This document shows, piece by piece, positions 12,005 to 47,821 of a stretch of 64,000 nt of DNA. A program made the position numbers and the translations under genes. Under the pieces are notes generated by a model. It was not told the origin of the DNA. It made no database searches and worked only from the letters and a program-made list of their open reading frames with translations. Every line of letters begins with the position of its first letter. The first letter of the stretch is position 1. The DNA is from a virus (lineage: Duplodnaviria > Caudoviricetes), in IMG/VR virus record IMGVR_UViG_3300020492_000001, positions 12,305-76,304 of that record. One strand, written 5' to 3'.

Positions 12005-13480
12005 TTAAGCTGATTTACGGATGATACACCATCTTTTAGTGTTGTAGATAACAAGTAAATCTTGTTTCAACATTGCCATTTTCCAAGCGTCCTCTTCTGA
12101 AATAGCATCTCCAGGTAAACCTGTCATACCATTAATAGTAGTTTTAACGTCAGAACGATTAACACCGTAAGCGCCTTTAGGTATAATTTCGATATTAGAA
12201 TCCATAAACGAACCTAAATCTCCACCAATATAAGTACTTGACATGATTAATTGACCGTCATTACCTCTCTCTGGGAAACGTAACTCATCATCAAATAAAG
12301 GATGTTGTACAAAACATACTGAACTTCCTGCGAAATTCATACGTGTGATATGGTATCCTACTTCGATTTCAGCACCACCTTGTACTTGTTGCATTAATTG
12401 AGCGTTTTGCGCTAATACGAAACGAGCCATTTTACGTTGTGCATTGTAATATCCATCAATACCTGTCATAAACACGATATTAACAGAAGACGTAGATGAA
12501 TCAGATTGCTTAGTTAATAATTTCATTGCATCAATAAAATCATCTTCTGTAGCTTCTCCGTTTACACCTGAACCATATAATTCGTTACCGCCAGAGATTT
12601 GCTCTTCGATACCGTCACCCATGATAATACCATTACCTGTTTCGTTATCAACTAAGTTAGCTACAGCAGCACGAGAGCCATCTGTGTTTTTCATAGTAGA
12701 GATACCGAAGATTTTAGCATATTCATTCTCCATAGCCCATTGAGCTTCTGCTTGACGAACTTTCTCGAATTTCCATCCTTTAACTGGACCGTTAGAAGAC
12801 ATATACTCATACCATAATACATCTGTTGCAGCATCTCCAGAGATAGCAACTGTTTTACGTTGAGTAGTCATATCTACGATAAAAGTATCAGGGAATTGGT
12901 CACGACCATATCCTTTTAAAGATTTCTCACCATAACCTGTTGTAGATGGGAAGAAAGTATAAGTACCTGTACCTTGAGCTGCAACGTGTGTAGCAAAAGA
13001 GAATACTTCTTTTTGTGGATGTTGGAAGCTATATAACCAACCTGCTGCTACCTTAGTAGGCTCAGCCATAACCATTGCAGAATAACGATTTCCGTAGAAA
13101 ACACACATTTGTCCTTTGTACGCGTAGTTATCTTTAGCGATTAATTGGAAAGTACCATCTGAACCTGAACTACCTACTTGAGAGATAATTGTTGCAGCTT
13201 TTTGAATACGACCCATAACGTTGAAACGGTAAGAGTTATCTCCAATAGCTTGGCTTTCTTTTACTTTACCAAATTTAGTTGGCTTACTTAAATTAATACC
13301 ATAAGGGCCTACTGCTCCAGATGTTAATAAAGTAGTTAATTGTCTTTGATCCACACGTTCTAACATTTGACGGATAGCAGGGAATTTTTGCTGATTTCTA
13401 ATTAAATCAGACTCTAAAGTACAGTCTGCTGAGAATGTACCTCTTACTAGGTTTGTTTGACCTGGGTTTACTGTTGGCAT
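12005..13480 (-). CDS. Major capsid protein (crAss-like)
   Basis: 491 aa after portal and scaffold; size, composition and gene order of the crAss-like head module; followed by a terminator. Confidence 0.8.
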   Translation of the reverse strand: MPTVNPGQTNLVRGTFSADCTLESDLIRNQQKFPAIRQMLERVDQRQLTTLLTSGAVGPYGINLSKPTKFGKVKESQAIGDNSYRFNVMGRIQKAATIISQVGSSGSDGTFQLIAKDNYAYKGQMCVFYGNRYSAMVMAEPTKVAAGWLYSFQHPQKEVFSFATHVAAQGTGTYTFFPSTTGYGEKSLKGYGRDQFPDTFIVDMTTQRKTVAISGDAATDVLWYEYMSSNGPVKGWKFEKVRQAEAQWAMENEYAKIFGISTMKNTDGSRAAVANLVDNETGNGIIMGDGIEEQISGGNELYGSGVNGEATEDDFIDAMKLLTKQSDSSTSSVNIVFMTGIDGYYNAQRKMARFVLAQNAQLMQQVQGGAEIEVGYHITRMNFAGSSVCFVQHPLFDDELRFPERGNDGQLIMSSTYIGGDLGSFMDSNIEIIPKGAYGVNRSDVKTTINGMTGLPGDAISEEDAWKMAMLKQDLLVIYNTKRWCIIRKSA

Positions 13481-37812: not shown

Positions 37813-39378
37813 ATGATAAAGAACTTGCGTGGATACCAACAAGAAGTAATATGTAAAGTAGAAGATGCTTTAAAATCAGGAGTTAGCCGCCAGCTTGTTT
37901 GTATGGCAACTGGTTTAGGTAAAACTTTTACGGCAGTCAAGATAGTTGAGAAGCTACAATTCAAGCGTATTTTATGGATTACACATAACGAGGAGTTAAT
38001 CCAACAATCTGGACTTGCATTCCTTAAAGATAAGTTTGACGATACATTTGCTAAACACGTTCAAGATATAGGCTTCTTAGATTGGGTTGATAAACATAAC
38101 TGTAATTTCGGAAACCATACAGGAACGTTTAAAATGGGTGCAATTAAAGCCTCTGTATTTAAGATTAATGCAGAAGTTACTATGGCATCAGCACAAACTC
38201 TCTACAGAAGACTAGATAAGATTCCATTTGATTATTTCGATTGCATCGTAGTTGATGAATGTCACCTCTTCATGGCCAAGACGTTCCTACAGCCATTAGA
38301 ATACTTTAAGCCTAAATTACTACTTGGACTTACCGCCACGCCGCATCGTATGGACGGCTTATCTCTAGGCAACATATTTGAGCAAATAACCTATGAGTAT
38401 AATATAGGACAAGGTATTAAAGATGGTTACTTATGTGAGTTAGACGGAATAAGAGTACAAACTAATGTGTCATTAGATAACGTAAGAACAACCGCAGGAG
38501 AACTTAATCAGAAGGATTTAGCAGATGAAGTAAATATTCCTAGACGTAACCAATTAATTATAGATAAATACAAGGAATACGCTGATGGAAGACAAGGAAT
38601 ATTCTTTTGTGTAGACATTCAACACGCTTGCGATTTAGCGGATATGTTTATTGAAAATGGTATTAGCTGTAAACCTATTGTTGGAGATGAAGAATTTACT
38701 CCTGATAGAGTTGGTACTATACAAGATTTTAAAGATAGAAAGATACAAGTCCTTACTAATTGCCAGATACTTACTACTGGTTTTGATGAGCCAAACGTAG
38801 GGGTAATCGGTAATGCTTCTCCAACAAAGTCTTTAACTAAGTATATGCAGTCTGTTGGGCGCGGATCAAGATTAAAAGATAAAGAGTTCGTAGATAGATT
38901 TGGACAAAACTGTGTAATCCTAGACTTTGTAGATTCAAGTTCAAGACATAAGTTAATCAATACATGGACACTAGATCAAGGAAAGAACTTAGAGGATAGA
39001 GTATTCTTAACTCAGGATAAGAGAGACTATATATTAGAAGAAAGAGCTAGAAAGTCTGCTAAAGTTGAAAATTTAACTGATAAGGATGAGAGAATAAAGC
39101 TAATTGAATTACCTCCTGCTAAACAATTTGGATGGAAGAAAATGCAAGAAGCGGCAACATCCGCACAATTAAAATACATATCTGATTTAGGACACGATAT
39201 TCAAAACAATACTTACACTAAACAGCAATGCGCGGATATTATATCTTTAGAGCCTTGTAATAAAAAAGAGATAGAATATTTGAAATCTAAAGGATATGAC
39301 ACTACATTTGCCACAAAGGGCCAATACGGCACAATTTACTACGAATTAGAAATGAAAAACAAATGGAAAAAGAAGTAG
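37813..39378 (+). CDS. Superfamily 2 (DExH) helicase
   Basis: LRGYQ Q-motif, ATGLGKT, DECH, TAT, TGFDEP, QSVGRGSR. Confidence 0.9.
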   Translation: MIKNLRGYQQEVICKVEDALKSGVSRQLVCMATGLGKTFTAVKIVEKLQFKRILWITHNEELIQQSGLAFLKDKFDDTFAKHVQDIGFLDWVDKHNCNFGNHTGTFKMGAIKASVFKINAEVTMASAQTLYRRLDKIPFDYFDCIVVDECHLFMAKTFLQPLEYFKPKLLLGLTATPHRMDGLSLGNIFEQITYEYNIGQGIKDGYLCELDGIRVQTNVSLDNVRTTAGELNQKDLADEVNIPRRNQLIIDKYKEYADGRQGIFFCVDIQHACDLADMFIENGISCKPIVGDEEFTPDRVGTIQDFKDRKIQVLTNCQILTTGFDEPNVGVIGNASPTKSLTKYMQSVGRGSRLKDKEFVDRFGQNCVILDFVDSSSRHKLINTWTLDQGKNLEDRVFLTQDKRDYILEERARKSAKVENLTDKDERIKLIELPPAKQFGWKKMQEAATSAQLKYISDLGHDIQNNTYTKQQCADIISLEPCNKKEIEYLKSKGYDTTFATKGQYGTIYYELEMKNKWKKK

Positions 39379-39517
39379 ATAAAACAAAAGTATGTTATAT
39401 CTGTAAGAAACCTACAGAGTATAGCCTACACCCAGTATTTACTTCTGACATGGTAATTATCAAAGGAATAAAACAATGCTTTAAATGCCTATCAAATAAC
39501 TATAAAAACAAATAAAT

Positions 39518-39874
39518 ATGAAAAACAATCCAACAACAGGAAAACGCAAAGAGGCGGATGCTCCAACAAACTTAGTAATAGAAGGTTCTATTGACTATAA
39601 ACTAACTATATCTAAAAAAGGATATGAATTAGAAACTAAGAATAGTATTGATAATGATTTAGCTGCCATGTTACACGCAAGAGGAATAATAGAAATGTAT
39701 AAAAAAGACTCTGAGATGACTAAAGCTCATCCTATTTATAAAATGATGAAGCCTGACAAAAGAAAAGAATTTAATAGTAAGTACGATAAACTAATTCACG
39801 CATCTTATATTATAGAGAAATTATCTGGAAAATTATTAGAAAATGCTATGATAGCTATTAACAAAAAAGATTAA
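39518..39874 (+). CDS. Hypothetical protein
   Basis: 118-aa ORF. Confidence 0.6.
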   Translation: MKNNPTTGKRKEADAPTNLVIEGSIDYKLTISKKGYELETKNSIDNDLAAMLHARGIIEMYKKDSEMTKAHPIYKMMKPDKRKEFNSKYDKLIHASYIIEKLSGKLLENAMIAINKKD

Positions 39875-39878
39875 TGCC

Positions 39879-40124
39879 ATGAAACATAAACGCGAACTTA
39901 AAATTTATAACGGAAGAGTAAAAGTATATGTAGATGGATACGTGATGTTTTCTTTTAATCAAATTGACTTCTTAGGTTATTATGCTTATAAGGACGATAC
40001 TTCACTCTACGGATTAGATATTTATTTATTAAGAGAAAAAGCGGGTGCGTCCACGATGGAAATTTACTTTAAAACTAAAGAGAATTGGCTCGAAATGCTT
40101 AAATTACTTGATACTCATTTGTAA
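39879..40124 (+). CDS. Hypothetical protein
   Basis: 81-aa ORF. Confidence 0.6.
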   Translation: MKHKRELKIYNGRVKVYVDGYVMFSFNQIDFLGYYAYKDDTSLYGLDIYLLREKAGASTMEIYFKTKENWLEMLKLLDTHL

Positions 40125-40180
40125 TTTAATTATTTTGAAAATAAACGTAACCTTTTAAATTTATATACGTTTAAATAGAT

Positions 40181-40310
40181 AGATAACGTTGAGTATATAT
40201 GTTCGGTTGCGATTAATAGCACGAACTTATCAATTTAAACAAAACTTAATAGAATGAACAAAATTTCAAATAAACACGAAACCGCAACTGACATATATAC
40301 TGTGTTATGT
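40181..40310. repeat. attC-like site E1
   Basis: GATAAC-GTTG-AGTATATATG...CATATATACT-GT-GTTATGT. Confidence 0.75.
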
Positions 40311-40706
40311 GCTGCCTTTTGTGGTGCTGGTAAAACATTTATTTGTGATAAAACAGATATAAAGGCAGTTGAAGTTGAATATTGGAAGTATAAAGAAAAA
40401 GGACTGTTCAAAGAATATATTGAAGATGTTAAGAAGTATATCGGTAAGGTAGATTACATCTTTATTGCAACAGAGCCAGAAGGAATGAAATTGCTACATG
40501 ATGAAGGATTTGAAATAACTCTTGTTTACCCAAAAAATGAACTCCGAAACGAATATTTGGATAGATACATTGAGCGTGATAGTCCTTATGATTTTATTGG
40601 AACATTTATGAAGCATTGGCATATATGGATTGATGAACTTAAAGAGCAAAAATATTGTAAGCATATTATTTTGGATTCAGGACAATACTTGCAGAATGTT
40701 CTTTAA
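40254..40706 (+). CDS. Cassette 1: small P-loop NTPase/kinase-like protein
   Basis: Walker A-like AFCGAGKT; starts inside E1. Confidence 0.65.
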   Translation: MNKISNKHETATDIYTVLCAAFCGAGKTFICDKTDIKAVEVEYWKYKEKGLFKEYIEDVKKYIGKVDYIFIATEPEGMKLLHDEGFEITLVYPKNELRNEYLDRYIERDSPYDFIGTFMKHWHIWIDELKEQKYCKHIILDSGQYLQNVL

Positions 40707-40710
40707 GGTT

Positions 40711-40807
40711 GCACATAACGTTTTGCGGCTTGGCGAAGGCTGCCTAACGGATGCTCAATTTTCGCACAAATTTCAATGGCAGCTTTTGCCAAACCGCTGT
40801 TACCTGC
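40711..40807. repeat. attC-like site E2
   Basis: GCACATAAC-GTTTT-GCGGCTTGGCGAAGGCTGCC...GGCAGCTTTTGCCAAACCGC-T-GTTACCTGC. Confidence 0.85.
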
Positions 40808-41114
40808 TGGGCGGTTTATCAGTAGGAACTTAAAAATAATATTCAAAATGTTGCCAAAAGAAAAAGCACAGGAACTTGTAAGCAAGTTTAAAGATTACGT
40901 TCACGGATATGTTGGTAGCTCAATGCTTACCAACCATGAATACCCTGAACAAATTTTATCACAAGCAAAGAAAGTAGCAATTATTGTTGCAGATGAAATG
41001 CTCCATCAATACACTACTTTAAATGCTGATTTAATAAACGCATTGTATCGAACAGAAAAGGTTGTCTTTTGGCAACAGGTCAAAATAGAAATTGATTATG
41101 TGTCGGAATTGTAG
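40776..41114 (+). CDS. Cassette 2: hypothetical protein (PKEKAxEL family)
   Basis: MLPKEKAQELVSKF resembles 33452 and 34619. Confidence 0.6.
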   Translation: MAAFAKPLLPAGRFISRNLKIIFKMLPKEKAQELVSKFKDYVHGYVGSSMLTNHEYPEQILSQAKKVAIIVADEMLHQYTTLNADLINALYRTEKVVFWQQVKIEIDYVSEL

Positions 41115-41118
41115 CCTT

Positions 41119-41255
41119 GCAGGTAACGTTTCGCAGCTATATTTAGTTGCGATTTTGAAAAACAAAAGTTTAATTAATAAATAAAAGTAAATATGAAAAA
41201 CAAAGTTGAAAATAAGAGCAATAATAAGCAATTGAATATACTAGCTGTTAGGCGT
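41119..41255. repeat. attC-like site E3
   Basis: GCAGGTAAC-GTTTC-GCAGCTATATTTAGTTGC...GCAATTGAATATACTAGC-T-GTTAGGCGT. Confidence 0.8.
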
Positions 41256-41636
41256 AGTTTTTTTAACTTCAAGTATAAATGGCCATTAAGAAAATACTGG
41301 CTTAATTGGTTTAAAAGAGATGTTAAGAGATGGTATTATTCTAAAATACACGGTTTTAAAATGGGTGTATTTGATGGAACTATGATTCCAACTACTGGTA
41401 AAGGTAAATATGTATCTGTTTATTCTAAAGGTGAAATAATCCAAATTAAACATGAAAGCGGTTATGAACATTTAGAGTATGATGAAATTAGAATAATACC
41501 ATGTCAAGAAAATCACGGTGTAATGGTTGAAAGATTTAAAACAGGAAAAATGTGCGATAGAAACCACATGGATTTAAAGCAATTTAATAAAGGTATAATT
41601 TTCGCTTCCAATGTTGAACAGTTGGCTGGTCGTTAA
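41193..41636 (+). CDS. Cassette 3: hypothetical protein
   Basis: Starts in the E3 loop. Confidence 0.6.
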   Translation: MKNKVENKSNNKQLNILAVRRSFFNFKYKWPLRKYWLNWFKRDVKRWYYSKIHGFKMGVFDGTMIPTTGKGKYVSVYSKGEIIQIKHESGYEHLEYDEIRIIPCQENHGVMVERFKTGKMCDRNHMDLKQFNKGIIFASNVEQLAGR

Positions 41637-41640
41637 AATT

Positions 41641-41780
41641 ACGCCTAACGTTTTGCAACTTGCATTAGTGCCTTGCAAAAATACGAGTAGCTTCGGATTA
41701 AAAAAGAACACAACAAATAAAAAACAAACATTAAATTAACAACCAAGCCAAAGGCATTGATGCAAATTGCTGTTATGCGC
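41641..41780. repeat. attC-like site E4
   Basis: ACGCCTAAC-GTTTT-GCAACTTGCATTAGTGCCTT...AAGGCATTGATGCAAATTGC-T-GTTATGCGC. Confidence 0.85.
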
Positions 41781-41803
41781 TGGCAAAAAAAAAATTAAAA
41801 ATT

Positions 41804-42118
41804 ATGAGTACAATTATCGAAGACATTCAGTTTATGAAATCAATTTTGCCTGAACACTATGAGGTAAAAGAAAGTAAAAAATCAGGTTCAATTCATTGTA
41901 AATCAAGTATTGGATTAAGAAAAACGCCATACAATAGTTTTGATAGTTTTAAACGACCAATTATTGTTGATGATGCGGAAGATGAAGAACAATGGTTTTA
42001 TATCGTTGAAGCTATTAAAGCAAAGTTTGGCGAAAGGTTACAGGAAATTGACCATAACACTTGTTTTTGCCACGTCGATTTCACGATTTATCTGCGGTTT
42101 TCCGTTGCTTGCGCATAA
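41804..42118 (+). CDS. Cassette 4: hypothetical protein
   Basis: Stop TAA lies within GCGCATAAC. Confidence 0.6.
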   Translation: MSTIIEDIQFMKSILPEHYEVKESKKSGSIHCKSSIGLRKTPYNSFDSFKRPIIVDDAEDEEQWFYIVEAIKAKFGERLQEIDHNTCFCHVDFTIYLRFSVACA

Positions 42119-42247
42119 CGGTTTGCAGCTAAACGAGGTGGCTGATTAATACCTCGAAACTTAATTAAAAGAACAAAATTATGAACACAGACAAAAGTTT
42201 ATTAGAAGAACAAAGCAAGCCATCTTTTTTAGGTGCTGTTATGTGCC
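42111..42247. repeat. attC-like site E5
   Basis: GCGCATAAC-GGTTT-GCAGCTAAACGAGGTGGCT...AGCCATCTTTTTTAGGTGC-T-GTTATGTGCC. Confidence 0.85.
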
Positions 42248-42387
42248 GTTTTTTATTCCAATACAGAAGTATGGATAAAGATTTAATGGTACATATTGAA
42301 GCAAGTAGTTTAAATTATGCAATGGTGAAATTTGCAACTCACTACCATTTAATTGATGAAGTGTATGAGATTGCAAGGGTGTCCTAA
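42181..42387 (+). CDS. Cassette 5: hypothetical protein
   Basis: Starts in the E5 loop. Confidence 0.55.
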   Translation: MNTDKSLLEEQSKPSFLGAVMCRFLFQYRSMDKDLMVHIEASSLNYAMVKFATHYHLIDEVYEIARVS

Positions 42388-42390
42388 AAT

Positions 42391-42545
42391 GGCACATAAC
42401 GGAAAATAATAAACGTATGTGTTGGTGTGTGGTTAAAGTGTTCCTCTGGCTAATGGACAAGTACCATAACCGTAAGTGCCTAAAACTTACCATACCACGC
42501 TACGGGCGGAACACGCCAACATTACGTTTATTTATTGTTAGCAAA
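42391..42545. repeat. attC-like site E6 (long structured loop; precedes an ORF-less cassette)
   Basis: GGCACATAAC-GGAA-AATAATAAACGTATGTGTTGG...CCAACATTACGTTTATTTATT-GTTAGCAAA. Confidence 0.75.
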
Positions 42546-42556
42546 TCGTTTTAATG

Positions 42557-42638
42557 TTTGCTAACGGCATCAAGCTAAAAGCTGACCGCCTAATAAGCGG
42601 TTAGTATATGGCGGTTTGATTTTAGGTTGTGTTATGTT
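42557..42638. repeat. attC-like site E7
   Basis: TTTGCTAAC-GGCAT-CAAGCTAAAAGCTGACCGCC...GGCGGTTTGATTTTAGGTTG-T-GTTATGTT. Confidence 0.8.
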
Positions 42639-42699
42639 GGTGCGATGGCAAGTGTGTGAGGCAGTTTTATTTTATTAATTTTTAAAAAAGCGGAGGAAA

Positions 42700-42912
42700 A
42701 TGGAAAACTTATACTTTAGAAAAAAACTTATATGGGCTGAAATTGAGCGATTAAAACACGAACTTGAAAAGAATCAAGAGTTTATTAACTTATTTCAAAA
42801 ACAAAACAATGATTTGCTAAAACAGATTGAAAAGCAATTTAAAGAAATAGAAATTGTTGGAGAGCAATTACTAAAAATAGAAACAGAACAATTAATAAAA
42901 CATGATTTATGA
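42700..42912 (+). CDS. Cassette 7 gene a: coiled-coil hypothetical protein
   Basis: 70-aa ORF. Confidence 0.55.
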   Translation: MENLYFRKKLIWAEIERLKHELEKNQEFINLFQKQNNDLLKQIEKQFKEIEIVGEQLLKIETEQLIKHDL

Positions 42913-43178
42913 CAACAGAAAAACCACTTAGAAAAACAGGCAGTTATATAGTAATTGCCAAACGTTGGAGCAGCGAACAATCACATAATTACATTGTAGA
43001 TTTATGCTCAGGAATTGATTCAGCTAAAGAAATTGCAGAAAATGAAATGCGAGAGCGTGGCGGTAAATATGGGATACAGATAATTGCTTTTAGAGAAGAT
43101 AACAACGAGCAAGAAATTGTTTTTGAAATTGAAAGCCCATATAAGAATAAGGTAAATATACCTACTGATAACGCTTAG
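42909..43178 (+). CDS. Cassette 7 gene b: hypothetical protein
   Basis: ATGA overlap with gene a. Confidence 0.55.
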   Translation: MTTEKPLRKTGSYIVIAKRWSSEQSHNYIVDLCSGIDSAKEIAENEMRERGGKYGIQIIAFREDNNEQEIVFEIESPYKNKVNIPTDNA

Positions 43179-43214
43179 GTGCGTAGGCTTTTAAAAATTA
43201 ATAAAATAAAATTG

Positions 43215-43303
43215 AACATAACGGTTTGCAGCTAATAGAAGGCTGTAATTACACAAAAATATATGAGCTGTTAACTCAGCTTTTTATTAGGTGCTGTTAG
43301 TAC
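43215..43303. repeat. attC-like site E8
   Basis: AACATAAC-GGTTT-GCAGCTAATAGAAGGCTG...CAGCTTTTTATTAGGTGC-T-GTTAGTAC. Confidence 0.85.
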
Positions 43304-43351
43304 CAGTAGCCAAATTAAAATTTAAAAACAATAACAATTAAAAACTAAAAT

Positions 43352-43630
43352 ATGAAAAACAACAAAGAACAATCGTACCAATACGCTGCAATTATACAAG
43401 GCGCAATAGCAGAAATGTTAAATGAAGATAGTGATAGCGATTATAGAATATCGTTAAGCGATTTTGATGATGAGGATAAAGCAACTGCATTTTTGCACGC
43501 ATTAGCTAATATAGTGCCTTGTAATATCTATAAAAAATTAACTCAAGATGATACTGACATTTTAGGTTTTAATCATATCGCTAATAGATTAGTATATCAA
43601 TTTACAAAGCAGGACGAAGCCGAAGATTAA
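43352..43630 (+). CDS. Cassette 8: hypothetical protein
   Basis: 92-aa ORF between E8 and E9. Confidence 0.6.
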   Translation: MKNNKEQSYQYAAIIQGAIAEMLNEDSDSDYRISLSDFDDEDKATAFLHALANIVPCNIYKKLTQDDTDILGFNHIANRLVYQFTKQDEAED

Positions 43631-43646
43631 ACATCAAAGGCTATTA

Positions 43647-43780
43647 GTACTAACGGTTGGTGCTTTATTTAGTGCCGACTTAACAGATAAAATTTAATTG
43701 AAACACAAATGAAAAATAAAAAGACAAAAGTAAAATCGAAGCCGAAAACTAAGGCATTGAATAAAGCACTTGTTAGCAGT
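43647..43780. repeat. attC-like site E9
   Basis: GTACTAAC-GGTT-GGTGCTTTATTTAGTGCC...GGCATTGAATAAAGCACT-T-GTTAGCAGT. Confidence 0.85.
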
Positions 43781-43966
43781 AGTGCCTATGTGCGTTACCG
43801 CTACTCAGGTAAATCTTCTTCAATATTTTGGGATATAGTAAATTCATTACCAAAAGATGCAGACAGACAAGAGATGTATGCTTTAGGATGCGTTTTGCAA
43901 AATGTTGAAGAAGATGTGTTGAGAACACTAAGGAATATTAACAGCAAGTATGTGCGTGGCAAATAG
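43709..43966 (+). CDS. Cassette 9: hypothetical protein
   Basis: Starts in the E9 loop. Confidence 0.6.
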   Translation: MKNKKTKVKSKPKTKALNKALVSSSAYVRYRYSGKSSSIFWDIVNSLPKDADRQEMYALGCVLQNVEEDVLRTLRNINSKYVRGK

Positions 43967-43971
43967 GCATT

Positions 43972-44110
43972 ACTGCTAACGTTCTGGCGGTTGGCGTTCG
44001 TTGCCGACTTTGGAACACTAAACTTTCACTTTTAAAATAAATTTGATATGGAACACAAAACTTCAATAAACCACGAAAACGGCAATGACGCCAACCGCTT
44101 GTTACCAGCA
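43972..44110. repeat. attC-like site E10
   Basis: ACTGCTAAC-GTTCT-GGCGGTTGGCGTTCGTTGCCG...CGGCAATGACGCCAACCGCT-T-GTTACCAGCA. Confidence 0.85.
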
Positions 44111-44275
44111 GTTAGTTGGTATAAATCATTATCGCTCAACCAAAAGATGGCGCTCAAAGAAGTATCAGCATTAATTTGTGGAATGAAATGGGAAGATTTC
44201 AATATTCTATTCAGTCCACGAGAAAGACTTGAGATATTGCACAACAAATTAATATTGGAAGGTTTCCTTGTCTAA
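44048..44275 (+). CDS. Cassette 10: hypothetical protein
   Basis: Starts in the E10 loop. Confidence 0.55.
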   Translation: MEHKTSINHENGNDANRLLPAVSWYKSLSLNQKMALKEVSALICGMKWEDFNILFSPRERLEILHNKLILEGFLV

Positions 44276-44276
44276 T

Positions 44277-44379
44277 TGCTGGTAACGTTTTGCAGCTAAT
44301 AGAAGTGGCTGCTTGTAAGAACTTCTGAATTATAAACAAATGCTTGTAGCAGCCATTTTTGTTAGGTGCTGTTATAAGC
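44277..44379. repeat. attC-like site E11
   Basis: TGCTGGTAAC-GTTTT-GCAGCTAATAGAAGTGGCTGCT...AGCAGCCATTTTTGTTAGGTGC-T-GTTATAAGC. Confidence 0.85.
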
Positions 44380-44396
44380 TGTAAAAATTACGACTT

Positions 44397-44603
44397 ATGA
44401 AAACGTATTTATCATTTTACGGAGATTGTTATTACCCAAGCGGTGGTATGGGTGATTTTATTGGAGATTACGACACCAAAGAAGAAGCGATACAAGCTAT
44501 TGAAGAAGCTCACAAAAAGAACCGCCCTGATGATTTAGAATGGGAGTGGGCTTGGGCTAATGTTTGGAGTGCACATGACCGAATCGAAGTGTACACTAAG
44601 TAA
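44397..44603 (+). CDS. Cassette 11: small phage-type protein (YYPxGGxxDF family)
   Basis: YLSF...YYPSGGMGDFIGDYDTKEEA motif familiar from phage hypotheticals. Confidence 0.6.
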   Translation: MKTYLSFYGDCYYPSGGMGDFIGDYDTKEEAIQAIEEAHKKNRPDDLEWEWAWANVWSAHDRIEVYTK

Positions 44604-44611
44604 TTTTTATT

Positions 44612-44679
44612 GCTTATAACGGATGAAGCCTTACCCAGCGAAGGTGTCGACCGAGTTGGGTAAGGGTTGGGTTATAAGC
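44612..44679. repeat. attC-like site E12 (shortest, 68 bp)
   Basis: GCTTATAAC-GGAT-GAAGCCTTACCCAGC...GTTGGGTAAGGGTTG-G-GTTATAAGC. Confidence 0.8.
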
Positions 44680-44728
44680 TGACGGTTACTAATGTTACTA
44701 TGAAAAACAATTTAAAAAAAATAACGAT

Positions 44729-44914
44729 ATGATTGAAATAGAAGAATTATTTGGTGGAAATGATGCCGAAGAACACAATGTTTTATACACTATTATTAAA
44801 AATAGAGGATATAAATATTTTGAAGAAACACCCAAAACAAGTATGACTTGCGGATTAATTAAAGATTTACACGAACTAAATTACGAGATTGTAAAAAAAA
44901 ACGTTTCAAAGTAG
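44729..44914 (+). CDS. Cassette 12: hypothetical protein
   Basis: 61-aa ORF between E12 and E13. Confidence 0.55.
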   Translation: MIEIEELFGGNDAEEHNVLYTIIKNRGYKYFEETPKTSMTCGLIKDLHELNYEIVKKNVSK

Positions 44915-44923
44915 CTACCGTTT

Positions 44924-45051
44924 GCTTATAACGGTTCGCAGATAAACGCAGTTTTATGAAACAGAAATTAGATATAGAAAAAATTAGAGAGTTGGAAACC
45001 ATAGCTAAAGAATTAGATGCTGAAAAATTGCGTTTATCTGCTGTTAGCAAA
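44924..45051. repeat. attC-like site E13
   Basis: GCTTATAAC-GGTTC-GCAGATAAACGCAGTTT...AAATTGCGTTTATCTGC-T-GTTAGCAAA. Confidence 0.85.
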
Positions 45052-45153
45052 TCGGTTTGCGACCACTCTTGGATGAACACAGGATTATCAGTACAAGGCA
45101 AAAGTTTGATGGTATGCACCAAATGTAGGGAAACCAAGCAAACTGTTTGCTAA
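44956..45153 (+). CDS. Cassette 13: small putative Zn-ribbon protein
   Basis: CDHSW...CTKC; starts in the E13 loop and stops within TTTGCTAAC. Confidence 0.55.
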   Translation: MKQKLDIEKIRELETIAKELDAEKLRLSAVSKSVCDHSWMNTGLSVQGKSLMVCTKCRETKQTVC

Positions 45154-45200
45154 CTATTATATGTAAACTACCCTTTAAACTAACAGCAAAATCAATACTC
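45146..45200 (-). other. attI-like half-site
   Basis: Core GTTAGCAAA on the minus strand with no palindromic partner arm; second GTTAG about 30 bp away; lies just 5' of the recombinase start. Confidence 0.55.
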
Positions 45201-45221
45201 TTTAATTAAAAAATCGAAAAT

Positions 45222-46055
45222 ATGAATTTAGAAAAGTGGATAAATAGATATAAAACTGATTGTGCTTTAAAGTATAATAGTGATGCAACCAAAGAAAATT
45301 ACACTTCTGGAGTTAAATCTTTTCTTATAAAATTCGATAAATATTCTGAGCCTAAAGAAATACCGACTCAGGAAATTAAAGAGTATTTATTGACTTTTAA
45401 AACGATAAATACACGAAAGCATAACCTTTGCTCTATTAAATCTTTCTATAAATTAACTGTAGGTATGCCAAGCAAGATTGATAAGATTCCTTATCCTAAG
45501 TCTGATAAGAAACTACCTATCGTTCTTTCTGTAAACGAAATTCAAAGAATGTTTAATGTCTGCCAAAATAAGAAGCATAAAGCAATTTTAGCTTTACTGT
45601 ACTCTTGTGGATTACGTGTATCGGAACTTATAAATTTGAAATGGAAAGATATTGATAGAAGTAGAATGGTAATTAATATAATCCAAGCTAAGGGAAATAA
45701 GGATAGGCAAGTCCCATTATCTCAAGATTTGATTAATGTATTAGAAAGTTACTGGAATGAGTACAAGTCCGCCGAGTATGTTTTTAATGGACAAAAATCA
45801 CTGCAATACACAGATAGAAGTGTAGGAGAAGTAATTAAACAGTTGGCAGATAAAGCAGGAATATGTAATAAAAGGGTTTACACACACCTTATGCGTCATT
45901 GCAGCTTTACGCACATGGTTGAGAACGGAACTGATATTTCGCTTATCCAAAGACTCGCTGGACATTCTAGTGTAAAAACGACTAATATCTACCTCCATAT
46001 CAGCCATAATCACATAAGTAAAATCCAAAGTCCACTAAGTAATATTAAATTATAA
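45222..46055 (+). CDS. Tyrosine recombinase, integron-integrase-like (lacks IntI-specific insertion)
   Basis: SAM-like N-terminal domain; KLPIVLS; complete catalytic set GLRVSE, KGNKDR, THLMRH, LAGH, TNIY. Confidence 0.9.
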   Translation: MNLEKWINRYKTDCALKYNSDATKENYTSGVKSFLIKFDKYSEPKEIPTQEIKEYLLTFKTINTRKHNLCSIKSFYKLTVGMPSKIDKIPYPKSDKKLPIVLSVNEIQRMFNVCQNKKHKAILALLYSCGLRVSELINLKWKDIDRSRMVINIIQAKGNKDRQVPLSQDLINVLESYWNEYKSAEYVFNGQKSLQYTDRSVGEVIKQLADKAGICNKRVYTHLMRHCSFTHMVENGTDISLIQRLAGHSSVKTTNIYLHISHNHISKIQSPLSNIKL

Positions 46056-46075
46056 CTCAAACTTGAATTAAAAAC

Positions 46076-46450
46076 ATGGTAAAACTAGAAGTAATAGAAG
46101 AAGGAGATTTATTCCTATATAATTTCACTTTGGCAGACGGATCAAAGAAGCAGCAGAAATACACTAAAGCTACACATGAAGCTATTAAAAGTTATTTTAG
46201 TAAGCCTAAGAAGGAGAAAAAGAAGCCTGCAACCGCGCCGACATTAGAAGAAGTAAAGGAGTATTTTAAGAAAGAAGGCTACCAAGAGGATGCTGCTATC
46301 AGATTCCATAAGTATTACGAGGCACTAGATTGGTATGATAATCAAGGTCGCCCTGTATTAAGATGGAAAGGAAAGGCTATCGCAACTTGGTTTAAGCCTG
46401 AAATGAAATTAAAAGTAGAAGTTAAAAATACATCATCATTTTTTCAATAA
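46076..46450 (+). CDS. Replication initiator/helicase-loader-like protein
   Basis: PTLEEVKEYF...FHKYYEALDW...G..V.RWK, a C-terminal domain type of phage replication initiators; directly before dnaB. Confidence 0.55.
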   Translation: MVKLEVIEEGDLFLYNFTLADGSKKQQKYTKATHEAIKSYFSKPKKEKKKPATAPTLEEVKEYFKKEGYQEDAAIRFHKYYEALDWYDNQGRPVLRWKGKAIATWFKPEMKLKVEVKNTSSFFQ

Positions 46451-46453
46451 CAC

Positions 46454-47821
46454 ATGGACTTAAAACAAAAAGAAAGAGAAGTACTTAATCTATTTGCGGA
46501 TAATGCTGATTTATTTGTTAATTGTGAACACTTGGTATTTGAAAACTTATGGTCCACAAACTTTAATAAGGTTAAATTCAAAATTATAACTTATAATCAT
46601 AGTAAAGGTAAGAAATCTGACATTTACCTGCTCTCTAATATGCTTATTAAGGCAGGTTGTAACAAAAAAGAAATCGGACTTGAAGTGTCTGAGCCTAATT
46701 ATAAAATCGCTAAGAATGTAGATGAGTATGTTAAGGATATTTTTGATGAGTATTCTAAGCGACAATTAACTCCATTACTTCAAAGAGTTCACTCAGAGCT
46801 TAGTTCTGAATTAGGAGATGTAAATAGCTGTTTAGAAGATTTAAAGACGGCAGTGAACGATATAGAGAGTATTAAGAATAATCTTTCTGTAGATAAAAAA
46901 GCAACTGATATTTTTGATCAAGCATTTAACGAGTTAATGGAAGCTCAGAATAATATAAAAGAGATAGTTGGTTATTCTACAGGGCTTAAAGATTTAGATA
47001 AGATGTGTGGTGGACTAAAACAAGAGGTTATTGTTATTGGAGCGCCTCCTGGTTCTGGTAAAAGTTCATTAATGGTAAACATCGTTGATAATGTAGCTAT
47101 CAAACAAGGTAAGCCTGTTGCTGTGTTTTCTTTAGAGATGCCTGCTACTCAATTAATGAAGAATATGTGGGCCAACAACCTTACAATTAATTCTTATGCG
47201 ATACGTGGCGGAGGATTGTTAGATGAAGATTTAGTAAAAGTAAAGAAGTACAAGCAAAGATTAAAAGATAATTTAGTCATAGATGACACCCCAGGAATTA
47301 CTTGGCAGTATATGGAGACTAGAATAAGAAAGATGCGTAAAACAGTTCCTATGAATGAATTGATAGTTGTTATGGTAGACTATATTCAAATTATGAGAAA
47401 TACTATTGAGGAGACAAGAGGGATTAGTAGTGAAGAGCAATTAGGATTAAGAAGTAACGGCTTAATGGAACTTTCTAAGAAATATAATCTTTGCATGATG
47501 GAATTATCTCAATTATCTAGGGAAGTTGGTAAGAGAGAGAATAAAAAGCCTGTAATGGGAGATTTAAAAGGCTCAGGAGCTATTGAAGCAAACGCTGTAC
47601 AGATATGGTTACTCTATAGGCCAGACTACTTTGAAACCGATCCTATGGAGAATGGAATGTCTTTAAAAGGACTCTGCGAGATTAATATGGCTAAGAATAG
47701 ATATGGAGAGACAGGTAGAAGATATGTAAGATTTGAAGGTAAATACTCAGCATTTAAAGATTTTGATATTAATGAAGTTAATGGATTAGTAACAGGAAGT
47801 AGCAATGGAGATGAGTTCTAA
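46454..47821 (+). CDS. dnaB: Replicative DnaB-like helicase
   Basis: GAPPGSGKS, FSLEM, VDYIQ, LSQLSR, DLKGSGAIE, KNRYG. Confidence 0.92.
   Translation: MDLKQKEREVLNLFADNADLFVNCEHLVFENLWSTNFNKVKFKIITYNHSKGKKSDIYLLSNMLIKAGCNKKEIGLEVSEPNYKIAKNVDEYVKDIFDEYSKRQLTPLLQRVHSELSSELGDVNSCLEDLKTAVNDIESIKNNLSVDKKATDIFDQAFNELMEAQNNIKEIVGYSTGLKDLDKMCGGLKQEVIVIGAPPGSGKSSLMVNIVDNVAIKQGKPVAVFSLEMPATQLMKNMWANNLTINSYAIRGGGLLDEDLVKVKKYKQRLKDNLVIDDTPGITWQYMETRIRKMRKTVPMNELIVVMVDYIQIMRNTIEETRGISSEEQLGLRSNGLMELSKKYNLCMMELSQLSREVGKRENKKPVMGDLKGSGAIEANAVQIWLLYRPDYFETDPMENGMSLKGLCEINMAKNRYGETGRRYVRFEGKYSAFKDFDINEVNGLVTGSSNGDEF

Follow-up and report, generated by a model that had tools for sequence, protein, structure and literature searches.

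The array of hairpin sites between positions 40184 and 45154 of a phage contig raises the question of where a mobile gene begins, and to which side of its recombination site it belongs. The window, by which we mean the whole stretch of DNA analysed (64,000 nucleotides; positions 12,305 to 76,304 of IMG/VR record IMGVR_UViG_3300020492_000001), contains here 13 hairpin sites, S1 to S13, each with a left core TAAC and a right core GTTA. An earlier inspection of the letters, referred to below as the sequence-only reading, had listed seven open reading frames (ORFs) that start within the preceding site and read through its right arm and core. All seven (40254, 40776, 41193, 42181, 43709, 44048, and 44956) are present, starting within S1, S2, S3, S5, S9, S10, and S13, and the peptides quoted for them match the translations. 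We read the array as 13 mobile cassettes with attC-like hairpins, in which crossover falls in the left core, most of the flagged genes start inside the site, and the hairpin with its leader forms a portable module, carried by a phage of a Flavobacterium-type host. The probability of this reading is put at roughly 80%. All features described below lie on the + strand.

The unit of mobility

The array is followed by the gene of a Xer-like tyrosine recombinase (45222–46055; 277 residues). A search with this recombinase yielded 31 IMG/VR loci, most of which carry a similar array just upstream, with the recombinase homologue at the array end. Two relatives, L004 and L006, encode a recombinase that is 99.9–100% identical to that of the window, and they contain four of the window cassettes at 98–100% identity in a changed order. 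The shared blocks (44283–44621, 43969–44314, 42116–42402, and 43650–43980) each extend from one left TAAC to the next left TAAC. The block that begins with S5 (42116–42241; 126 nt) is 100% identical in L004, and the block of S9 (43651–43775; 125 nt) is common to L004, L006, and L007, also at 100%. Since the shared blocks run from left core to left core, the mobile unit is the hairpin together with the gene downstream of it. This agrees with the inverted model of the sequence-only reading, according to which site and gene travel together.

When the window is compared with L004 and L006, the conserved left flank stops at 40190, in S1 (40184–40307; 124 nt), and the block comprising the attI-like region and the recombinase gene begins at 45148. 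The junction is a lone TAAC half-site (45151–45154) that lacks a hairpin downstream; from there, non-hairpin DNA extends to the start of the recombinase gene. In L004 the same attI-like sequence is joined at the TAAC to another last cassette. Two further matches are to single sites, S4 in Flavobacterium phage snusmum6-1 and S2 in a 642-kb uncultured phage (L002, LR756502). Homology is lost exactly at the left TAAC in both, and past the right core it is kept for 13 nt (S4) and 36 nt (S2). Crossover would thus take place in the left core, presumably by the adjacent 277-residue recombinase. With crossover at this position the hairpin belongs to the gene on its right, and a gene that starts in the loop would never be split.

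The canonical integron orientation was considered as an alternative. Here crossover would occur at G|TT in the right core (+ strand), the hairpin would belong to the gene on its left, and the open frames would be junction fusions by which shuffling gives new leaders. Such an orientation would suit the finding, described below, that the same hairpin occurs with different downstream cargo and that homology then ends exactly at the right core, and it would suit the extra + strand bases on the left (5') arm, which resemble the top strand of a canonical attC. However, all recent rearrangements at 100% identity are bounded at left cores, the S4 and S2 matches pass beyond the right core and break at the left TAAC, the recombinase-side end is a lone left core without a hairpin, and cassette 1 forms with three unrelated hairpins share their 3' end and right core. 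The canonical orientation is therefore considered very improbable.

Over longer time, the partnership between hairpin and cargo changes. The S3 hairpin (41124–41250; 127 nt), which is found also in L134 and L135, heads three unrelated genes in these loci and the window, in each case with the leader MKNKVENK..KQLNILAV. The S10 hairpin (43977–44104; 128 nt) heads four unrelated genes (window and L151–L153), the S5 hairpin two (window and L161), and the S9 leader two (window and L139). Among cassettes with the same hairpin, homology stops at the right core, and each junction is in frame. A given cargo also stands behind other hairpins, or is hairpin-free with a short native N terminus. When the cases of one leader on different cargo are taken together with those of one cargo behind several hairpins, 19 of 19 hairpin-cargo junctions are in frame at the DNA level. 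Arbitrary combinations of arm and gene had been named in advance as evidence against in-site starts. Such combinations do occur over longer time, but the in-site starts stand, with their junctions in frame. Judged by these junctions, the hairpin is a portable 5' module that gives a start codon and a leader, and not the fixed partner of one gene.

Probable translation starts within the sites

In S1, S3, S5, S9, and S10, the ATG is situated in the open loop, 58–71 nt past the left core and 53–66 nt before the end of the right core. The ATG of S2 lies at the edge of the loop and the right arm, and that of S13 comes right after the left arm. Translation would start at the ATG in the A-rich open loop for the genes at 40254, 41193, 43709, 44048, and 44956, and probably for that at 42181, so that the loop, right arm, and right core would together encode a hydrophilic leader of 17–30 residues. 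The leaders are poorly conserved and predicted to be disordered, and they are rich in Lys, Asn, Leu, and Glu, in keeping with the A-rich loops. Two frames relative to the core had been counted in the window, and this count is right: S3, S5, S9, and S13 are read GTT-first, and S1, S2, and S10 as xxG-TTA. Relatives also use the third frame, xGT-TAY, which is possible only with GTTAY cores.

About 30 of the 76 distinct sites in the window and its relatives have an ORF that runs from a loop ATG through the core. Among 46 long sites, an ATG with an open path to the core was found in the frame of the main gene in 54%, compared with 26% in the other frames (Fisher p = 0.001). Start-context scores of the loop ATGs range from 2.4 to 9.5, similar to those of true gene starts (mean 4.6), and the values of alternative starts, located at the core or past it, are -3.5 to -17.

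The comparison of individual cassettes with their homologues bears on a second alternative, namely that translation is initiated at the right core or a little past it. The start codons would then be GTG or TTG in cassettes 1 and 10, the ATG of GTTATG in cassette 5, and later codons elsewhere, and the loop frames would be untranslated by-products of stop-poor, A-rich loops. Cassette 3 (41193–41636; 147 residues) starts at an ATG in the S3 loop. Its conserved domain begins at residue 27, where hairpin-free homologues start with M-K-Y-K-W, and the long forms have varied leaders that are all open. From the core to residue 57, itself inside the conserved domain, there is no ATG, GTG, or TTG, and the start-context score of 9.5 is the best of the array. 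The gene of cassette 9 (43709–43966; 85 residues) has its ATG in the S9 loop. From Val-22, encoded by the core GTT, onward, its seven homologues show no variation, and they carry four different Lys-rich leaders, all open. Cassette 10 (44048–44275; 75 residues; ATG in the S10 loop) has a hairpin-free homologue in L150 that starts at the position of residue 23. The starts inside the site at 41193, 43709, and 44048, as well as the start at 40254 of cassette 1, are taken as real on the strength of these sequence comparisons.

Cassette 5 (42181–42387) encodes 68 residues from the loop ATG, and its core GTTATG holds another in-frame ATG at 42241. The context score is 3.6 for the loop ATG and -11.0 for the core ATG. 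The same cargo is found in L158, in frame behind another hairpin, and in L161 the cassette 5 leader heads a 52-residue membrane protein without any other start. The start at 42181 is probable by its better context; it stays ambiguous in that the core ATG is also in frame. For cassette 13 (44956–45153; 65 residues), which follows S13 (44929–45046; 118 nt), the next Met is residue 40, past the C-x-H half of a C-x-H...C-x-x-C motif. Relatives of this cassette were found neither in IMG/VR nor in the phage collection, and the start at 44956 is taken as real by ORF logic, the ground being that there is no alternative start. The stop codon TAA of this gene lies within the terminal TAAC, and in the segment 44956–45154 a crossover at TAA|C would leave this stop codon inside its cassette.

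Cassette 2 is different. Its ORF was flagged as 40776–41114, starting within S2 (40716–40802; 87 nt), a site that is also present in L002. However, most of the 125 homologues align their own residue 1–3 to residue 25–27 of the ORF, and in L002 a TAA closes the S2 loop frame ahead of an unrelated gene. The additional 24 codons that begin at 40776 are probably not translated, and the in-site start claimed here is probably not real. The gene almost certainly begins with the ATG at 40848 (40848–41114; 88 residues), where the homologues have their N termini, and ORF 40776 would be an accidental upstream extension. The hairpin, the 36 nt downstream of the right core, and the terminal 16 nt (TAGCCTTGCAGGTAAC) are common to the window segment 40716–41127 and L002:4006–4330, and the ORFs of these two cassettes are unrelated. 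This pattern reads as a replacement of cargo inside a conserved cassette frame.

Relatives contribute eight recognisable enzymes that would have to begin in the site: three C5, three N6_N4, and one Dam-type methyltransferase, and one PAPS-reductase-like protein. Their Pfam domain begins 4–29 residues past the core, and for seven of them a later Met is first met within the N terminus of the domain or beyond it. The exception is L001:4499, with a Met eight residues before the start of the Pfam domain, yet after a conserved GDCLE motif. The ORF at L019:8909 is a counter-example and resembles cassette 2.

ORF 40776 and L019:8909 are probable cases of a start at or after the core, and this alternative would also be in keeping with the variable leaders and with the 26% of off-frames that have an ATG open to the core. 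In cassettes 3, 9, and 13, by contrast, and likewise in L135, L161, L010:5109, and L025:9252, the stretch from the core to the conserved part contains none of the codons ATG, GTG, and TTG. Post-core starts would leave the 19 in-frame junctions out of account, decayed hairpins retain the loop ATG and an in-frame leader, and the candidates near the core have poor contexts and are located at the foot of a 20-bp stem. As a general explanation, starts at or past the core are judged unlikely.

Several observations weigh against our reading of the array. The use of the loop ATGs is deduced from sequence. Constraint on the leaders at the protein level is weak, the pooled ratio of nonsynonymous to synonymous polymorphism (pN/pS) being 0.54, a value based on 48 differences from non-independent pairs and confounded by hairpin constraint. 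The codon that overlaps the core is GTG or TTG in all cassettes of the cassette 1 and cassette 10 sets (xxG-TTA frame), so that a near-core start is possible there, and one database homologue of cassette 1 is called from MLCAAF. The ATG of cassette 13 abuts the left arm, has a context score of -1.8, and has no relatives to support it. About half of the sites of 117–137 nt contain no in-site start. Finally, the extra unpaired bases are found on the 5' arm of the better-folding strand, unlike in the bottom strand of a canonical attC. The canonical attC has its extra bases on the 5' (left) arm of the top strand. By this layout, either strand of the array sites may be the one that is cleaved.

The starts of such arrays will be misplaced by gene callers, in both directions.

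Overlapping constraints on cassette 1 and the hairpins

Cassette 1 (40254–40706; 150 residues; ATG in the S1 loop) had been described as encoding, in the arm and core of its site, the hydrophobic strand VLCAAF directly before a Walker A motif GAGKT. The position of VLCAAF directly before GAGKT is correct, and Gly-24, Gly-26, Lys-27, and Thr-28 of the Walker A motif (A-x4-G-K-T) are invariant among 27 aligned homologues. The protein has 291 homologues; conservation begins at T-[VIL]-L-C-A-A-F-C-G-x-G-K-T, and the residues upstream are variable. In the AlphaFold model, residues 1–13 have a predicted local distance difference test score (pLDDT) below 50, and a strand is found at residues 17–20 (VLCA). 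Val-17 to Ala-20 stem from the right core with its extension, GTTATGTGC, and not from the arm proper, which encodes residues 11–16 within the variable leader, predicted to be disordered. An alignment of homologues had been suggested as a check, and it places the pre-Walker A strand on the right core and extension, so that the description holds for these elements but not for the arm.

The cassette 1 model shows no helix after the P-loop. The best Foldseek match has an E value of 4e-3, and there is no match in Pfam or NCBIfam. Alignments with VIA-align give Z scores of 5.1–6.9, all to P-loop kinases (guanylate, shikimate, adenylate, and polynucleotide kinases). With moderate confidence, the protein is predicted to be P-loop kinase-like.

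Most homologues of cassette 1 are hairpin-free and have short N termini such as MLKTVLCAAF. Cassette forms exist with four unrelated hairpins (the W/L056 type, L035, L039, and L092), and in each the loop ATG is in frame. In the window the loop ATG has a context score of 5.5, against -3.5 for the GTG that overlaps the core. Two forms appear decayed: in L054 the left half of the site is gone and the upstream region in the loop, the ATG, and the leader remain, and L038 has lost the hairpin by an in-frame deletion of 12 nt and still starts with MNKLSN. One leader in frame with many unrelated genes, and one family in free, hairpin-headed, and decayed form, provide rare natural snapshots of the birth and death of cassettes.

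Where the core of the cassette form reads GTG-TTA-TGT-GCT, hairpin-free homologues read GTC-TTA-TGT-GCA. This resemblance to the cassette core suggests joining at a core-like sequence. As a tentative proposal, somewhat less probable than its contrary, new cassettes may arise by in-frame fusion of an existing hairpin module (loop with translation start and leader, right arm, and GTT core) to the 5' part of a gene where the sequence resembles the core. The site would then provide a start codon for genes that no longer have one of their own. If true, this would be a concrete and testable route for the genesis of cassettes, a problem that is unsolved for integrons.

The ends of each cassette are complementary over a long range. 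In every cassette, GTT plus 5–19 nt at the start is complementary to 5–19 nt before the AAC at the end; that is, the sequence after the GTT of site n complements the sequence before the AAC of site n+1. The 3' end of cassette 1 after the stop codon is GCACATAAC in all cassette forms and must pair with GTTATGTGC. In L072, a synonymous change of the Cys-19 codon from TGT to TGC is matched by a change from GCACATAAC to GCGCATAAC 450 nt downstream at the 3' end. Codons, hairpin pairing, and long-range pairing of the ends are therefore layered on the same bases, as the Cys-19 change directly shows.

Covariation within the arms had also been proposed as a check. Compensated arm pairs are present in both sets examined, with four in the cassette 10 set and 11 of 22 in the cassette 1 set, and the frame stays open. 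The four fully compensated pairs of cassette 10 occur in L143, which has a different hairpin, and the only change in the right-arm peptide is from GNDANR to GNEANT. The claim that a single stretch acts at once as hairpin, as site of crossover, as translation start, and as coding sequence is supported by the covariation of arms with an open frame.

All 13 sites fit the core pattern YTAAC ... GTTAN, and the 20-nt arms are peculiar to each site. The mean arm complementarity score is 17.3 for the two arms of a site and 8.4 for arms of different sites. In 63 of 72 distinct sites, the fold of the + (coding) strand is the more stable one (p = 1e-9), a bias that fits folding as single-stranded DNA or as mRNA. 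The better-folding strand has a bulge of 4–6 nt by the core on its 5' arm; canonical attC sites differ in having extrahelical bases.

The lengths of the 76 distinct sites (window and L001–L033) are bimodal, with one class of 48–98 nt and a tight class of 117–137 nt. An explanation of the long class by in-site starts was rejected, because about half of its members have none; something other than the gene start fixes the site length.

Phage setting and comparison with known systems

The window belongs to a single contig of 76,304 bp with a phage-like gene content, including helicases, a DnaB-like protein, and structural genes. DNA matches are few and are to Flavobacterium phages and the 642-kb uncultured phage. 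A blastn search of 50,697 phage records with the entire array as query gave matches at two single sites only. S4 (41646–41775; 130 nt), whose gene starts at 41804, 29 nt past the core, is on its own 89% identical to the site in snusmum6-1. A genome-wide scan for sites found no comparable hairpin above background score elsewhere in the phage genome, an Rfam scan of 38000–47000 returned chance-level matches only, and profile searches of the cassette proteins against Pfam and NCBIfam assigned no family.

The remaining cassettes have their gene starts past the core or have no gene. S8 (43219–43299; 81 nt), S11 (44283–44374; 92 nt), and S12 (44617–44674; 58 nt) are followed by gene starts at 43352, 44397, and 44729, respectively. 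S7 (42562–42634; 73 nt) is followed by two ORFs (42700–42912 and 42909–43178; 70 and 89 residues) that overlap in an ATGA at 42909–42912, and this is the only two-gene cassette of the array. S6 (42397–42540; 144 nt) is followed by a 28-nt cassette without an ORF. The loop of S6 is GC-richer and structured, and the ends of its short cassette, GTTAGCAAATCG ... TGTTTGCTAAC (segment 42397–42565), are those of the last cassette. ORF-less cassettes are also seen in L002, where two copies of about 70 nt (L002:3941–4009 and L002:4336–4404), ending in GGCGCATAAC, are located between hairpin cassettes.

The cargo of the relatives is rich in orphan DNA methyltransferases of the N6_N4, C5, and Dam types (L010:3371–6002, L001:4499–5296, L022:5123–5641, and L025:9252–9935), so that anti-restriction genes are probably exchanged among phages of Bacteroidota by this system. 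One ORF, L021:133–1527, combines an N-terminal fragment of a C5 methyltransferase (Pfam residues 28–164) with a Phage_integrase domain (290–448). This is either a cassette gene that reads into the recombinase homologue or an artefact of assembly or frameshift.

Neither promoters nor terminators are enriched in or near the sites. Sigma-70-like promoters number 20 against an expectation of 25.9 +/- 5.8, terminator-like sites 4 against 2.7 +/- 1.6, and the Bacteroidota -7 motif (TAnnTTTG) was found in 4 of 72 against 5.7 +/- 2.4. A promoter inside each hairpin was rejected, since neither the sigma-70 consensus nor TAnnTTTG is enriched, and a terminator function of the hairpins was rejected for the same lack of enrichment. 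The array sits within a long run of + strand genes. From these two observations, we infer that the cassettes are transcribed by read-through from phage promoters farther upstream and that the start region used by each gene is the one in its own loop.

The same data bear on the possibility that the hairpins act as PeSL-like regulatory elements. In T4-type phages, PeSL stem-loop modules flank small accessory genes and mark swap points, and circular intermediates have been proposed (Arbiol et al. 2010, PMC2839356). PeSLs are near-identical units of a sigma-70 promoter and a terminator stem-loop that recombine by homology, and under this explanation the cassettes would be shuffled by homologous recombination between repeats, with the recombinase unrelated. 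The hairpins between small accessory phage genes and the circle-like complementarity of the cassette ends do resemble PeSL modules (PMC2839356), and the folding bias of the + strand would also suit a role in RNA. In contrast to PeSLs, the sites of the array are mutually dissimilar, with arms that differ between sites (8.4 against 17.3), so only 4–5 nt are common at the breakpoints. They have no promoter or terminator signal and no enrichment of the -7 motif, the breaks fall in a 4-nt core, and a dedicated recombinase is adjacent, with the arrays of the 31 loci always ending at its homologue. We regard the PeSL explanation as extremely improbable.

The best NCBIfam match of the recombinase is to the XerA-type family NF040815 (198 bits; cutoff 220). 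Against TIGR02249 it scores 164.5 bits (cutoff 265), and the match is split in two where IntI has its extra domain. The match to the structure of VchIntIA (Protein Data Bank code 2a3v) ends at query residue 172, and among proteins of solved structure its best relatives are archaeal XerA and XerC-like proteins. For CTX-phage, Xer recombinases use folded single-stranded DNA, but there the whole phage genome integrates at dif and no cassette array is formed. CTX-phage would offer a precedent for the chemistry proposed here, in which an enzyme of the Xer family acts on a hairpin of one strand. A GTDB scan for recombinase relatives gave five matches, four on contigs of 2–12 kb from metagenome-assembled genomes and a fifth, distant at 30% identity, on a contig of 31.5 kb, and no bacterial chromosomal arrays were seen among them.

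Virulent phages, including Polaribacter phage P12002L of a Flavobacteriaceae host, have been reported to contain attC-like sites and small cassettes, often with DNA methyltransferases, and integrase-less clusters (CALINs) were described, as well as classical IntI integrons in phages of Vibrio, Escherichia coli, and Shewanella (Qi et al. 2023, PMC9892861). That report makes no mention of a Xer-like enzyme, inverted cargo orientation, or in-site start codons. Apart from these phage attC clusters, our search of the literature for the in-site-start architecture found no precedent.

The system is integron-like in the shape of its sites, the logic of its cassettes, and its attI-like junction. It shares with integrons small single-gene cassettes, imperfect hairpins with inverse cores (..TAAC / GTTA..), and complementary cassette ends. 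As in integrons, and especially in sedentary chromosomal integrons with homogeneous attC families, crossover falls in the core, and a junction without a hairpin lies by the tyrosine recombinase gene. Related hairpin families occur on unrelated cargo, and cassette order varies among near-identical genomes. The 13 sites have the inverse cores (RYYYAAC ... GTTRRRY) and the single-strand folding of attC-type sites, the cassettes are bounded by cores and have complementary ends, and a putative attI-like site lies next to the recombinase gene.

The differences concern the enzyme and the arrangement of the cargo. IntI integrases are distinguished by an extra domain in the surroundings of patch III (Messier and Roy 2001, as cited in PMC9668308), and the 277-residue, Xer-like recombinase does not have this IntI-specific domain. 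An integron cassette has its attC 3' of a promoterless ORF, which points away from intI and depends on Pc for its expression, whereas here the hairpin is 5' of the cargo on the coding strand and the ORFs are co-directional with the recombinase gene, toward which they read. The start codon and leader are often inside the site, and the carrier is a lytic-type phage genome. Classical integrons keep site and coding sequence largely apart and express their cassettes from one promoter at the integrase end. Because the site of the present system stands at the head of the gene, often with the translation start, each cassette would bring its own start wherever it is inserted, so that a phage operon can gain genes unbroken.

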